A stretch of DNA of 64,000 bases from an uncultured Candidatus Babeliaceae bacterium (GTDB lineage: Bacteria; Babelota; Babeliae; Babelales; Babelaceae): positions 640,001 through 704,000 of the forward strand of contig OY969927.1 of the NCBI GenBank assembly GCA_963704655.1, written 5' to 3'. Below, in pieces: positions 15,641 through 56,430 of this stretch (its first letter is position 1; every line of letters begins with the position of its first letter). The notes below the pieces were generated by a model. The model worked only from the letters and a program-made list of their open reading frames with translations, searched no databases and was not told the DNA's origin. The position numbers and the translations under genes are program-made.

Positions 15641-16342
15641 ATGATAAAATATCCACTAGTATTAAGTCTATTAATAATATCGAGTCTACAGGGGATGCAA
15701 GCAGATGGAAAAGAATTTGGTCGCAAGCGTTCGGACAGTTTTTTACAACGCATACGTTCACTCACGTTAAATATTTCTCAATCTAACCAACGGGGGAGGC
15801 GGTCAGGTGAATTTCATGCACCAGGTTCAAGCAGTTCTGAGGCTGCAGGCAGTAGCATGAGCCCCCAAAGATCGGGAGCTCAATCACATGAATTTCATAC
15901 TCCAAGGGAAGCAACAAGCCCTCAAATTACGTCACCTAGACCATCAACATCGGAGCCTATGTCGCCTCGCAACCCTCAATCGCCAAGCGGACCAAAAGAA
16001 CGTGTCCTTACTCAATTTAATAACATAAGCAAATTATTTATTGCACGAGCATTAGCAACAAAGATAATTCACACCAAAAAAAGCTACGACCCCAACAACC
16101 CAAACCAAGTTGTGGTTACAGTAAAAACGGATGAAGATGCCCAGATGAGTATGCATTTTCCATGCTCTCACGAAACTGGCCTTGGCAGAATTAGTTATAG
16201 CTCAGAAGACATAATAGCTAACTTAGAAAAAGAGATAAGAATATATTCAGAACATCCACTTGAACTTCTTTATGAAGATGATAAGCCAATGGCACTTTCA
16301 CCAAAAGCAAAAGAGCGTGATATAAAATTTTTTGTAGAATAA
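15641..16342 (+). CDS. Secreted Ser/Pro-rich hypothetical protein
   Basis: Signal ending LQG|M, low-complexity region with many SP/TP motifs. Confidence 0.75.
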   Translation: MIKYPLVLSLLIISSLQGMQADGKEFGRKRSDSFLQRIRSLTLNISQSNQRGRRSGEFHAPGSSSSEAAGSSMSPQRSGAQSHEFHTPREATSPQITSPRPSTSEPMSPRNPQSPSGPKERVLTQFNNISKLFIARALATKIIHTKKSYDPNNPNQVVVTVKTDEDAQMSMHFPCSHETGLGRISYSSEDIIANLEKEIRIYSEHPLELLYEDDKPMALSPKAKERDIKFFVE

Positions 16343-52701: not shown

Positions 52702-54240
52702 ATGAACACCGTTCAAAGATACAGCTTTATATTTTTGTTAATAGTAATAGTACCGCAAAGAGTAGATGCTTTTCAACAGTCTATGGCCGCCTTACGCAGA
52801 AGTACTCAACAAATATCACCCACTTTACGCAGAAGCACCCAGCAAGTAGCCCCATATATCAGTAAACGTTATTTAACCTCGGCACAAGCAGCAACCATTT
52901 TGGGGGTTCAATCTGGAGCTACCCCACAAGAAATCAAATCGGCTTACCATAAACAGGCTAAACACTGGCATCCAGATTATGCTACTCGAAGAGGGGTTCC
53001 GGCAACTGAAGCTAATAAAAAAATGAGAGAAATTACAGAAGCATTTGATCAACTAAAAAAACAACCAATTTGGCAAAGTGCATATCAATCGAATCAATCA
53101 TCTTACGAGCAACAAGAGCAAACTTATGAACAGAAAGAGGAGCCTAAAAAAGAAAACCCTTCAATGAGCCCAGAACAAGAAAAACAATACGACGAGCTCT
53201 TTAAAGAAGGTTTCAGGTTTGTTAAATCAAAGTTTGCTGACTCTGGCACCCTTTTTACTGATAGCCGCTTTAGTGACAATGAACCAGTCCCACTTTCAAA
53301 TCGCTTAAAATATCTTCAAGAACGCTCGTGGGATGAAAAATCTATATATAGAAACGAAAATTTTTTAGCTTTAGCAGACACCATCGATACGTTTGGAGAA
53401 GCCACCACCTTAGCAGCATTGTTACAACCGGATTTCAAGGGAAACATCTTTGATATTCTAACAGCTCTTATGAATGGCTTAGAACGATATGATAATTACG
53501 TGAAAAAATTTGGAACTAAGACAATTTCAGAAAAAGATCTTAAAAAATTCGCTAAAGTTAAAAATTTTTTAACATACCTGCCTAATGAATATAAAACAGC
53601 TTTATCCCTTTTAAAAATTACGCATGGCCAAAAAGATGCTGTATCGCATGATAAATTTAAACCATTCTTAAACACTATAAAACAGTTTAGCCCTGCAGAA
53701 CTTTCTACATTTTCAAAAAAGTTTGGGCCTCTTGTTATAAATAACGCTAAGCTTTCAGGACTCTTTAATACGTTCTTAAAAGATTTTTTTATTAATATAG
53801 CCAGAGATTTTGAAAATTATTCCCAAGAAGAGACAGAAGTATTTTTGAAGCTTTTTTCAAACTTTTCTTATTCAGTTCAATTGCCTTTATTGGCAAAATG
53901 CACGTATTGGAATTTAAAAGACCCAAAAGAACAGCACGCAGAACGCTACCTTAAGCTTCTTAATACTATTTTAGAATCGCATCAAGACTTACCAACTCAG
54001 GAAGATGTTCTTTTGAAAAAGGAACGTGGTGAACCATTTTTAGATACCATTGGTAGCTACCTAAACCACAGCGAGCATTATAAAAGATTTTTACAGAGTG
54101 GCATGCTTCAAAAAGCTGCTTTTATAATCGATGAAAGCCACCCAGACCAATACCCTAAGCTTACAGAACTTATTTATTACCTTCTAAAAATTCCTAATAA
54201 AACGATCCACCAACAGCTAAGAACCGCTATTTTTGGATAA
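52702..54240 (+). CDS. Secreted J-domain (DnaJ-like) protein
   Basis: Signal VDA|F; AATILGV...EIKSAYHKQAKHWHPD...MREITEAF. Confidence 0.88.
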   Translation: MNTVQRYSFIFLLIVIVPQRVDAFQQSMAALRRSTQQISPTLRRSTQQVAPYISKRYLTSAQAATILGVQSGATPQEIKSAYHKQAKHWHPDYATRRGVPATEANKKMREITEAFDQLKKQPIWQSAYQSNQSSYEQQEQTYEQKEEPKKENPSMSPEQEKQYDELFKEGFRFVKSKFADSGTLFTDSRFSDNEPVPLSNRLKYLQERSWDEKSIYRNENFLALADTIDTFGEATTLAALLQPDFKGNIFDILTALMNGLERYDNYVKKFGTKTISEKDLKKFAKVKNFLTYLPNEYKTALSLLKITHGQKDAVSHDKFKPFLNTIKQFSPAELSTFSKKFGPLVINNAKLSGLFNTFLKDFFINIARDFENYSQEETEVFLKLFSNFSYSVQLPLLAKCTYWNLKDPKEQHAERYLKLLNTILESHQDLPTQEDVLLKKERGEPFLDTIGSYLNHSEHYKRFLQSGMLQKAAFIIDESHPDQYPKLTELIYYLLKIPNKTIHQQLRTAIFG

Positions 54241-54281
54241 CCTATAATATCGATTAATTTTTATCTTGATAAAGTAATTTT

Positions 54282-54309
54282 AGGGGCCCTTATTTGGGGC
54301 CCCTTTTTT
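54282..54309 (+). terminator. Intrinsic terminator
   Basis: AGGGGCCC-ttatttg-GGGCCCCT followed by T-run. Confidence 0.8.
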
Positions 54310-54364
54310 GAAAACTCACCAATCATATCACCCTGATAAATACTTCAATTTGAAATTAAAGCCA

Positions 54365-54394
54365 TTGACTTTCGAGCCAGCGCCATTTTATAAT
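54365..54394 (+). promoter_or_regulatory. Sigma70-type promoter
   Basis: TTGACT-18 bp-TATAAT. Confidence 0.55.
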
Positions 54395-54446
54395 AAAAAT
54401 AAAGAATGCATTTATCTCAAAATTTATTTGTAAAAGAAGGATCATT

Positions 54447-55790
54447 ATGAACACTTATACTAAAAGTGCCTTATTTATAACACTTTTGAGCACAATTTCA
54501 ATGCTTGAATGTATGACGGCAAGAAGCGCACAAGGCTTAAGTGCTATTCGTCAAGGGGTTGCTGGAACAGCCAGAACATCAATAGTTGGAACGGCGCGAG
54601 GATCAGGTTTACGCTCAGCAAGCCAAGCAGCTAAACAACAAACGTCTTTTTTCCAACGTGGATATTCTCAAATGTCGCGCGAAGAAGCGGCAAATATATT
54701 TCGCTTACCTAAAAATGCAACCGCTGAAGAGATAACCGCTAAATATAGACAGTTAGCAAAAGAATACCACCCTGACATAAATCCAACAGGGGCAAAAAAT
54801 ATGCAAAACATAAATCTTGCACGCGAGACATTATTAAAGAAGACGGGGGAAGCCACTGTTCAAGAAGCATCTGCAGCAAAAGCAGCACAAGAACAAGCCA
54901 GCCAGGCCTCTGAATACTTTAAAAACATATCTGAAATTTATAAAGATAGTTTAAACAAAGGCTTAGAGAGCCTCAAAAATTCTTTGAAGGAAGCTGAACA
55001 AAAATTTGATAAAACACTAAATGATCTTAAAAAAGCTGGCAAAGAATATAACTTCCAGGCTTTATACGATGAGTACATATCCAAAAACGCTTTTTTGGCA
55101 CGTGAAAATGCTCAAAAGATGGTGCAAAATGCCCAAAAAGTTGCAGAATCAATAGGTGAAAACCTCTCAAAAAAATTCAAGACTTTAAACCTTGATCAAT
55201 ACCCCGAATATAAAACATTGTATCAAAAAACAATGCAAGAAATCAAAAATGATCAAGCTAAAACTGTCAAATTCATTGAAAGTTCCATGGCGTTATCCAA
55301 TCAATCTTTACATTCCGCTAAAATGGCTACTGCAGAATCTTATCACTTATGCTATCAAAAAATACGCGAGCAGCTTTATTCAGTCTACTTTAAAGATATA
55401 GTTTATGTTCTAGAAAACGATCTTAAAGCACTCACAAAAGGTGAAAAAATTCGCATTCTAGAAAAATTTAATAAGGAATTCGATTACGCATCAGAATTAT
55501 TCGCTAGCATGAATGTAACTCCAGAAGTATTTGCAAAAAGTCTTGATAAGTTAATAACTTCGATGCAACGTATTACTGGAGAAGTTATTACTGATGCTGC
55601 AGGAAGTGCGAGCAGAACGGCTCAAAAACTTCAATATTCACAGTTTATGAGCCGACTAGGCGCAGGTCTTGGCGCTGCAGCTGTCGGTGCATATTTTTGG
55701 CCTAAATCAGAAACTAAACCAGAACAAAAAGAAGTAGCGGCTAAACCACCTGTTGAAACATCTCAAGTATCCCAGGCGCCAGCAAAATAG
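54447..55790 (+). CDS. Secreted J-domain protein with C-terminal TM anchor
   Basis: MSREEAANIF...YRQLAKEYHPD...INLARETL; LGAGLGAAAVGAYFW. Confidence 0.88.
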   Translation: MNTYTKSALFITLLSTISMLECMTARSAQGLSAIRQGVAGTARTSIVGTARGSGLRSASQAAKQQTSFFQRGYSQMSREEAANIFRLPKNATAEEITAKYRQLAKEYHPDINPTGAKNMQNINLARETLLKKTGEATVQEASAAKAAQEQASQASEYFKNISEIYKDSLNKGLESLKNSLKEAEQKFDKTLNDLKKAGKEYNFQALYDEYISKNAFLARENAQKMVQNAQKVAESIGENLSKKFKTLNLDQYPEYKTLYQKTMQEIKNDQAKTVKFIESSMALSNQSLHSAKMATAESYHLCYQKIREQLYSVYFKDIVYVLENDLKALTKGEKIRILEKFNKEFDYASELFASMNVTPEVFAKSLDKLITSMQRITGEVITDAAGSASRTAQKLQYSQFMSRLGAGLGAAAVGAYFWPKSETKPEQKEVAAKPPVETSQVSQAPAK

Positions 55791-55799
55791 AGTAAAAAT

Positions 55800-55822
55800 A
55801 GGGGCTCCAACTGGAGCCCTTT
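55800..55822. terminator. Terminator between convergent units
   Basis: GGGCTCCA-ac-TGGAGCCC-ttt. Confidence 0.65.
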
Positions 55823-55877: not shown

Positions 55878-56216
55878 TTATAAAAGTTTGTTACAAACCT
55901 GACGAAATATTTTTTTAAAAGCCACTTGATCTATTTCACCTAGCTGCCCGATTTTTTTATGTATTAAACGATTATCAAGCGTAAAGAGCTTCATACGAAT
56001 TAATGAAGCAGAAGGTAAATTTGTGGATACTAAATCTGCAATAACATGATCATGCGCTCTTTGCTGATGAAGAGCAGAACTTATCATTACCAAAATAACT
56101 GAGCCGTCTCTATTAAATTCAGCATCAGATAAGACCAAAGCTGGCCGTATTTTTGTTTGCAGAGAATCGACAAAGGGGAAAGGGACAATAACAATATCAA
56201 AGCTTTTGTAGATCAC
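55878..56216 (-). CDS. PemK/MazF-family toxin (GTG start 56216)
   Basis: FDIVIVPFPF, KIRPALVLS, MISS, SLIRMK. Confidence 0.88.
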   Translation of the reverse strand: MIYKSFDIVIVPFPFVDSLQTKIRPALVLSDAEFNRDGSVILVMISSALHQQRAHDHVIADLVSTNLPSASLIRMKLFTLDNRLIHKKIGQLGEIDQVAFKKIFRQVCNKLL

Positions 56217-56430
56217 GGTATGCCTTTTCATCTTCTTCTGAATCCCATTCAGATAACGTCTGTGCAACGGCTTTTAAATAAGTTTTATCAAGTGAATCTA
56301 TTTTTTTCAAAACAACCACACCTTCAATTATTTCAAAAATCACAGAATCACCGATTTTTAATTTCAATTGTTTACGTATTTCAGCTGGAATAGTTGTCTG
56401 GAATTTACTCGTAACCTTAACTATTTTCAT
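56197..56430 (-). CDS. AbrB/MazE-family antitoxin
   Basis: KVTSKFQTTIPAEIRKQL, acidic tail EWDSEEDEKAY; overlaps toxin. Confidence 0.88.
   Translation of the reverse strand: MKIVKVTSKFQTTIPAEIRKQLKLKIGDSVIFEIIEGVVVLKKIDSLDKTYLKAVAQTLSEWDSEEDEKAYRDLQKL

Follow-up and report, generated by a model that had tools for sequence, protein, structure and literature searches.

Candidate host-directed J-domain proteins with a signal peptide and a presequence-like leader in the genome of a Babeliaceae bacterium

Some bacterial effectors, among them Map and EspF of enteropathogenic Escherichia coli (EPEC) and Ats-1 of Anaplasma, carry N-terminal mitochondrial targeting signals, and mitochondria are also reached by the mature N-terminus of VacA, which becomes accessible only once a Sec signal peptide has been cleaved off. 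The closest known system to the genes considered here is HopI1, a type III effector of Pseudomonas syringae that binds host Hsp70 through its J-domain, with stimulation of the Hsp70 ATPase, and that is described as localizing to the chloroplast and remodeling it (PMC8150971). Here, we analyze two tandem open reading frames (ORFs), ORF1 (52702–54240) and ORF2 (54447–55790), on the forward strand of a 64,000-nucleotide stretch of DNA (the window) from an uncultured Candidatus Babeliaceae bacterium (GenBank assembly GCA_963704655.1, contig OY969927.1, positions 640,001–704,000). Positions are those of the window unless they are marked as genome positions. Both ORFs encode a signal peptide, then an acid-free, Arg-rich leader, then a J-domain. 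Judging from the sequences of this genome and its relatives, it is likely that the two proteins are Sec-exported, host-directed J-domain effectors. That the leader then serves as a mitochondrial presequence is plausible, if unproven, and we would put the full chain, mitochondrial targeting included, at somewhat under an even chance.

Like HopI1, ORF1 and ORF2 would be J-domain proteins that a bacterium delivers to its host. However, HopI1 is injected by type III secretion, has its J-domain at the C-terminus, lacks a Sec signal, and acts on plant plastids, whereas in ORF1 and ORF2 a Sec signal and a presequence-like leader precede a J-domain near the N-terminus. The sequence relation is limited to the J-fold, and the two proteins are not members of the HopI1 family. 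With Map, EspF, Ats-1, and VacA the common trait would be an organelle import signal on a bacterial protein, which in the case of ORF1 and ORF2 we infer; those effectors instead use secretion systems of type III, IV, or V and lack a J-domain. A further parallel is found in the bipartite signals of complex plastids, in which a signal peptide is cut off and an acid-free, hydroxylated, basic transit peptide is then exposed, the first signal crossing a membrane system and the second addressing the organelle. Those are eukaryotic proteins within one cell, however, whereas the signals of ORF1 and ORF2 would be read by two organisms.

The 512-amino-acid product of ORF1 (as given in the ORF list) begins with a signal peptide at residues 1–23 (52702–52770; direct reading, by our own heuristic) that has the usual n-, h-, and c-region layout, with R6 in the n-region, an uncharged core of ~13 residues, and V-D-A directly before F24. 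There is no Asp or Glu in the 54 amino acids from residue 23 to residue 76. Within this tract, the presequence-like leader (residues 24–60; 52771–52881) comprises 37 residues with five Arg, one Lys, and no Asp or Glu (net charge +6), and it terminates in R-Y-L-T-S. The J-domain follows, with the Pfam match (DnaJ, PF00226; E = 6.2e-12, 45.9 bits against a cut-off of 27.8) covering residues 66–120 (52897–53061) and the HPD motif at residues 90–92 (52969–52977). The rest of the protein (residues 130–512; 53089–54237) is an orphan, all-helical C-terminal region without detectable relatives.

ORF2 encodes 447 amino acids, in which the signal peptide, acid-free Arg-rich leader, and J-domain are followed by a long helical region, a weakly hydrophobic Gly/Ala-rich segment, and a 29-residue tail. 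Its signal peptide (residues 1–22; 54447–54512) has K6 and a 14-residue core; the cleavage site, which is less clear than that of ORF1, is ambiguous, after S18 or C22 (T-I-S or L-E-C, each with Met directly after it). A lipobox at C22 was considered and rejected given the L-E directly before the Cys, as was a twin-arginine (Tat) signal, because the twin Arg is placed after the hydrophobic core instead of before it. Residues 22–78 make up 57 amino acids without Asp or Glu. The leader (residues 23–75; 54513–54671) has 53 residues, with six Arg, one Lys, no acids, nine Ala, and 13 Ser plus Thr (net charge +7), and terminates in R-G-Y-S-Q, with R-G-Y-S at residues 71–74 (54657–54668). The J-domain match (residues 84–132; 54696–54842) has E = 5.4e-10 and 39.7 bits against the same cut-off, with HPD at residues 108–110 (54768–54776). 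In both proteins, HPD and a basic helix II are intact. An earlier note on this DNA, written from the sequence alone, had proposed these coordinates and the order of signal, acid-free stretch, and J-domain, which are confirmed by the ORF list, Pfam, and direct reading; its counts of five Arg and one Lys in residues 28–57 of ORF1 and of six Arg and one Lys in residues 23–75 of ORF2, and its report of HPD in both J-domains, are also correct.

The case for export comes mainly from the other J-domain proteins of this genome (G000) and of its relatives. The genome has seven J-domain matches, six of which are above the cut-off, and a signal-like N-terminus is missing in the canonical DnaJ alone. The signal-bearing J ORFs other than ORF1 and ORF2 encode two WD40 plus J proteins, one ankyrin plus J-like protein, and one J-like protein of 682 amino acids. 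Across this genome and 40 relatives, the J-domain search gave 144 matches, from 1 to 8 per genome. From these, 70 distinct J ORFs were recovered (a subset, given that ~100 noncanonical matches were listed and that a conserved family of ~700 amino acids is mostly left out); in this sample, 46 of the 58 noncanonical J ORFs of relatives are signal-like under a strict heuristic vs. 0 of 12 canonical DnaJ, and several of the 12 remaining noncanonical ORFs appear signal-like by eye. A basic leader is absent from most of the signal-bearing J-proteins found in relatives, several of which go straight from the signal into the J-domain.

The source genome encodes a canonical DnaK and a second Hsp70-like ORF in addition to the canonical DnaJ. 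Both Hsp70 homologs (at genome positions 411305 and 842329) have an N-terminus without a signal peptide, and there is thus no periplasmic Hsp70 partner, in agreement with the argument of the earlier note. A periplasmic J-domain would be without both a partner and ATP, which makes a host target the economical reading. Host export is well supported, given that signals occur on all five non-DnaJ J ORFs of this genome and on most of those sampled from relatives, and are found neither on canonical DnaJ nor on the Hsp70s. In terms of their sequences, signal-bearing J-proteins look like the rule in this order, and look like an order-wide effector class. With regard to what has been proposed before, three species-specific DnaJ-domain proteins of Babela massiliensis (Dependentiae) are reported as a chaperone excess and tentatively tied to cell division, and, as far as the sections on these proteins go, that account suggests neither export nor host targeting for them (PMC4378268). 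Our literature search found no proposal of exported J-proteins or of signal-plus-presequence effectors in Dependentiae; the supplementary files of two genome papers fall outside its coverage and may list such proteins.

The 682-amino-acid protein (G000:C1 367156–369204, reverse strand) has HNP in place of HPD, and many relatives show J-domain matches in open frames of 665–861 amino acids. These frames and the 682-amino-acid protein may be a conserved, degenerate family of exported J-proteins of the group.

The setting is that of a parasite. The genome is a single contig of 1,298,077 bases (~38% G+C) with two ATP/ADP translocase genes, and by SecA it comes closest, among named genomes, to metagenome-assembled ones labeled Babeliales, Dependentiae, or TM6 (58%–69% identity), with two metagenome-assembled genomes that have no such label at 89% and 85%. 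The organism is an energy parasite of the Babeliales/Dependentiae and is obligately intracellular. Members of the Dependentiae are widespread as parasites of protists, and almost none has been cultured. For one cultured member, Chromulinavorax destructans, the published description has replication in the host cytoplasm, an expanded and remodeled mitochondrion that wraps the cell, signal peptides on 44% of coding sequences, and the Sec system taken as the export route (PMC6561590). In our genome, two secretins and two ATPases of the type II secretion system E (T2SS-E) type were detected; VirB4, indicative of type IV secretion, was looked for in the genome and not found. The secretins together with the T2SS-E/PilT-type ATPases could offer Sec-exported effectors a way across the outer membrane. 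The secretin pair is at G000:C1 1068670–1073730, and one T2SS-E/PilT-type ATPase match lies inside the window (23470–24642, reverse strand).

The leaders of ORF1 and ORF2 are unusual for this genome. After the signal, ORF1 continues for 53 residues and ORF2 for 51 without an acid, whereas the corresponding run in 717 loosely defined signal-like N-termini has its median at 6 and its 95th percentile at 33. Asp plus Glu account for 11.7% (ORF1) and 10.7% (ORF2) of the whole proteins. A genome-wide scan for signal-plus-leader proteins, which the earlier note had suggested, returned at least seven other secreted ORFans with the same layout, in which the signal is followed by an acid-poor, Arg/Ala/Thr-rich leader of 31–66 residues. 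Three are tandem paralogs (starts 187705, 188707, and 189263; G000:C1 187705–190087), two are a tandem pair (starts 1145804 and 1146653; G000:C1 1145804–1147474), and two are single genes (G000:C1 217418–219412, encoding 664 amino acids without a Pfam family, and G000:C1 857492–859135). Most of these seven leaders terminate in R-x-F/Y-S/T. Pfam searches of six of the proteins gave nothing at the curated cut-off, and the family of 189263 was not found in the 40 relatives. In four of the nine proteins, counting ORF1 and ORF2, the leader is followed by a weak, Tyr-flanked, Gly/Ala-rich hydrophobic segment, an arrangement that resembles a presequence plus sorting signal.

When the nine leaders are pooled, Arg is enriched 3.4-fold, Ala 1.9-fold, and Thr 1.8-fold (Thr, Pro, Gln, and Ser lie at 1.5- to 1.8-fold), Lys is at 0.40-fold and Glu at 0.25-fold, and Asp is absent; for comparison, R/(R+K) is 0.35 for the proteome. 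Candidate motifs for cleavage of the type made by the mitochondrial processing peptidase (MPP) and Icp55 are R-G-Y-S in ORF2 and R-Y-L-T in ORF1. The pattern R-x-[FYL]-[STA] occurs six times in the nine leaders vs. 2.15 ± 1.37 in shuffles (fraction of shuffles reaching this, 0.017), with the caveat that leader ends were placed at the motif and that several leaders are from paralogs. Amphipathicity, which the earlier note had offered as a check, gives a marginal result at a window of 18 residues: the hydrophobic moment of the ORF1 leader is 0.62, shuffled versions average 0.39, and a fraction of 0.022 of them reach the observed value (0.060 for ORF2); maximum moments are 0.57–0.65. In favor of a mitochondrial address, export from the bacterium would put the basic leader on the outer side of its inner membrane, in conflict with the positive-inside rule, and within a mitochondrion the leader would be in the matrix.

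Conservation of the family was assessed at several scales. Searches of the full ORF1 and ORF2 against 5.8 billion clusters returned only the proteins themselves, ORF1 had no homolog beyond itself among 1.84 billion representatives, and the ESM Atlas gave no usable match for either. Scanning genome contigs with ORF1 yielded 82 pattern matches, none of which is a relative. Among the 40 related genomes, relatives of ORF1 and ORF2 occur only in G004, which belongs to the same genus. G004 has a positional ortholog of ORF2, a tandem pair at another locus, and a fourth member without HPD (in addition, one of the tandem copies has RPD instead). The ORF2 ortholog is only 32% identical, whereas the adjoining MazF is 79% identical to the MazF of the window, and it thus appears that the J-protein genes evolve far faster than their neighbors. 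Despite this divergence, all four G004 paralogs have a signal with a −3/−1 site (e.g., I-N-A or I-H-A), then 32–43 residues with zero or one acid, then R-x-hydrophobic-S, and then the J-domain. The leader sequences do not align; it is the composition that is kept.

The G004 tandem pair (locus L025, G004:C3 5049–7492) is syntenic with a different region of our genome, G000:C1 1213134–1221262, and its neighbors are 93%–94% identical to G000 genes. A 294-amino-acid signal-bearing protein in that region matches the G004 pair over ~105–110 residues only, at 34%–36% identity. The signal-leader-J module may thus have undergone domain shuffling.

If all steps are taken together, the pathway we favor would run as follows. 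Sec and signal peptidase would export the proteins across the inner membrane and remove the signal of 22–23 residues. The proteins would then leave the cell, perhaps packed in vesicles or through either secretin system. The exposed acid-free leader (~37–53 residues, rich in Arg, Ala, Ser, and Thr, with an R-x-(Y/L)-(S/T) end) might act as a mitochondrial presequence, which we consider the weakest step, and might carry the protein to or into host mitochondria. There, the HPD-containing J-domain would stimulate a host Hsp70, either mitochondrial Hsp70 (mtHsp70) if the protein is imported or cytosolic Hsp70 at the organelle surface if it is not. ORF2 may additionally be held at a membrane by its weak Gly/Ala-rich segment (residues 404–418; 55656–55700), which is followed by aromatic residues. 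The earlier note had called a C-terminal transmembrane segment here; a hydrophobic segment is indeed present, although its Kyte-Doolittle values are low (1.32 over 15 residues and 1.01 over 19). Similar segments are found in 39 ORFs of the genome, including the four of nine presequence-like proteins noted above.

A broader version can also be formulated, in which this one genus of Dependentiae uses a two-part effector address, a Sec signal read by the bacterium followed by a mitochondrial presequence read by the host, on at least five unrelated families. Several of these proteins would have a weak Gly/Ala-rich sorting segment after the leader, two would be mimics of J-domain co-chaperones, and the system would serve to seize mtHsp70 in the matrix or at the inner membrane. 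This is a tentative proposal, and in its full form it is unlikely to be right.

A number of points weigh against a mitochondrial address, and some of them against the analysis as a whole. First, the composition statistics are partly circular because the leaders were chosen as acid-poor and Arg-rich. Second, leader amphipathicity is weak. The hydrophobic moment is not above that of shuffles at a window of 11, and five other leaders tested are not significant. Third, Leu is at 0.63-fold in the pooled leaders and Gln, Pro, and Gly are common, thus disorder rather than a helix is suggested, and the predicted local distance difference test (pLDDT) values of AlphaFold2 models are <50 across both leaders. 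Fourth, the leader seems to be narrowly distributed. The filter for a signal plus an acid-poor, Arg-rich region was passed by 16 of 437 signal-like ORFs in our genome vs. only 1 of 101 (a Cys/Pro-rich protein) in a 381-kb sample of G008, from another genus of the same family, and the leader is thus a lineage-specific device and not a general Babeliales secretion tag. It should also be noted that genes and signal peptides were called by our own crude heuristic rules, and that there is no RNA run among the sequencing runs that were found to contain the stretch. Overall, of the earlier claim that the proteins are exported and then enter host mitochondria, the first part is well supported by the signals and by their absence from the Hsp70s; the second part is a possibility, with a composition that fits and an amphipathicity that is weak.

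The type of J-domain likewise counts against the mitochondrial step. The earlier note had likened both domains to the Pam18/Tim14 type, and their start, M-S-R-x-E-A-A-x-I-L-G, does presumably resemble that of Pam18/Tim14/DNAJC19. The further likeness would be a membrane-tethered J-domain that faces mtHsp70. However, in Pam18 a transmembrane segment precedes the J-domain, which is C-terminal, and a cleavable presequence is lacking. This order differs from that of ORF1 and ORF2, in which the J-domain lies near the N-terminus with 315–390 residues after it. A profile of the family's five J-domains, searched against the PDB, placed DnaJ, DNAJC5, DNAJB6/8, and DNAJA3 on top (E = 1e-15 to 1e-13). 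The best 60 of 84 matches consist of DnaJ, DNAJA, DNAJB, DNAJC5, Sec63, and similar proteins, with no Tim14/Pam18/DNAJC19 chain (we take Tim14 to be present in the PDB set). The J-domains are therefore generic in sequence and not Pam18-like, and the likeness drawn by the note is not supported. From what is known of J-domain behavior, they would still be expected to stimulate the ATPase of some host Hsp70.

The alternative that has to be taken most seriously is that ORF1 and ORF2 are host-directed effectors that work outside mitochondria, on cytosolic or endoplasmic reticulum Hsp70 or at some other host membrane, with the leader being a disordered linker or a different localization or membrane-binding signal. 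All of the evidence for export fits this equally well. The leaders look disordered and are only weakly amphipathic, and, as noted above, a basic leader is missing from the majority of signal-bearing J-proteins in relatives, so J-effectors can work without one. In addition, the G004 ortholog of ORF2 stops 8 residues past the Gly/Ala-rich segment, like tail-anchored proteins, and both it and ORF2 might be tail-anchored-like via this C-terminal hydrophobic segment. Such a scenario leaves unexplained why the leaders, in a Lys-rich proteome, are selected to carry Arg instead of Lys and to avoid acids, why the leader property persists at 32% identity, and why a leader with an R-x-Y/F-S/T end recurs on unrelated secreted ORFans. 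We regard it as possible, with a probability well below one half.

A topological alternative would keep the proteins in the bacterium, as inner-membrane-anchored co-chaperones of its own DnaK with a DjlA-like function. The hydrophobic stretch would then be an anchor that stays uncleaved, the N-terminus lying outside and the leader and J-domain in the cytoplasm. The hydrophobic stretch is followed by a strongly positive flank, which by the positive-inside rule fits the cytoplasm, and the flank before the second hydrophobic segment of ORF2 is positive too. DnaK is encoded in the genome, an N-terminal hydrophobic segment plus a J-domain is also what DjlA has, and ORF1 matches the DjlA model weakly (E = 6.2e-10). 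Nevertheless, the scores of 39.1 bits (ORF1) and 16.1 bits (ORF2) are far under the cut-off of 162 for this model (NF006948, an NCBIfam equivalog), the domain order is reversed, with an N-proximal rather than C-terminal J-domain, and the uncharged cores of ~13–14 residues are of signal-peptide length, too short for a bilayer, and are followed by −3/−1 sites. Moreover, sibling J-proteins have plain signals before WD40 or ankyrin domains, pointing to export, and five extra DnaK co-chaperones would be unlikely in a parasite with a 1.3-Mb genome. In sum, anchored co-chaperones are an improbable explanation.

Least probable of all, and very unlikely in our judgment, is that these are envelope or periplasmic proteins in which the J-fold is an Hsp70-free scaffold, or fast-decaying lineage-specific genes of little function: they are indeed orphans without relatives outside the genus, and HPD is lost in some members (RPD and the motif-less protein in G004, HNP in the 682-amino-acid protein), but HPD and basic helix II are intact in both ORFs of the window, the open frames are long and have their own start signals and terminators, the layout is kept between two species despite rapid divergence, and identical fragments occur in contigs of four metagenome runs from three studies.

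We return to the reading of ORF1 and ORF2 as exported effectors with a candidate mitochondrial address. There are two leads, exported J-domain proteins as an effector class of the whole order and, in one genus, a candidate two-step mitochondrial address. If the latter is true, it would provide a sequence rule by which to find organelle-directed effectors in bacteria without type III and type IV secretion, a natural tool to manipulate mtHsp70, and, across kingdoms, an equivalent of the bipartite signals found in complex plastids.

The Met that directly follows the predicted signal of ORF2, to which the earlier note had drawn attention, is present but not special. In signal-bearing ORFs of the genome, Met follows 69 of 1083 −3/−1 sites (6.4% vs. 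a background of 1.5%, or 4.4-fold), and the corresponding figure for the 381-kb sample from G008 is 39 of 232 sites (background 1.7%). A Cys is often found just before this Met, including in several signal-bearing ORFs (examples in the window are 15641–16342 and 54447–54515). Because the enrichment extends across the genome and to G008, it is a trait of the group and offers no evidence regarding ORF1 and ORF2, and a relic of a eukaryotic start codon was accordingly rejected as specific evidence. Possible origins of the enrichment include signals added before older start codons, dual initiation, and a peptidase preference. The ORF at 15641–16342 (forward strand, 233 amino acids) has a signal and then a low-complexity region rich in Arg, Ser, and Pro; with seven Arg it passed the basic-window filter, but it contains acids and is not clearly of the same class as the leaders.

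Some details of the two genes remain to be given. A purine-rich, Shine-Dalgarno-like stretch lies 5′ of both ATGs. After ORF1 there is a terminator-like hairpin (54282–54304, forward strand; nine pairs, seven of them G-C) with a T run, and another hairpin with a T run follows ORF2 (55800–55821, forward strand). Together with a promoter-like site before ORF2 (54365–54394, forward strand; 11 of 12 matches, to a consensus only), these make the two genes look like separate transcription units. Within the ORF1 leader, an 11-residue peptide unit is present in two copies (residues 31–51); the two-copy 33-nt repeat that this implies was not reported by Tandem Repeats Finder. A phmmer search with the C-terminal region of ORF1 against the 1.84 billion representatives returned itself and one 2237-amino-acid tandem-repeat protein (10 stretches), which we take to be spurious. 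The AlphaFold2 model of ORF1 (single sequence) has a mean pLDDT of 51.0, with values of 70–83 over the J-domain only and mostly <60 in the C-terminal region, and that of ORF2 (from a five-row alignment) has a mean of 42.7, a quality too low for fold comparison in either case.

Elsewhere in the genome, several signature genes are represented by short ORFs: G000:C1 104497–105270 (257 amino acids, RpoB signature motif), 145137–146582 (481 amino acids, GyrB signature motif), and 464534–465598 (354 amino acids, with an N-terminus read as GyrA). These may be assembly frameshifts, pseudogenes, or an artifact of our crude ORF caller. Regarding occurrence in other data sets, small shares of the stretch (0.10–0.13) are contained in six DNA sequencing runs, and the contigs from the four metagenome runs mentioned above are short, identical to the window, and cover scattered parts of it. 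Directly downstream from ORF2 is a toxin-antitoxin pair, with a MazF/PemK toxin at 55878–56267 and a MazE-type antitoxin at 56197–56430, both on the reverse strand.

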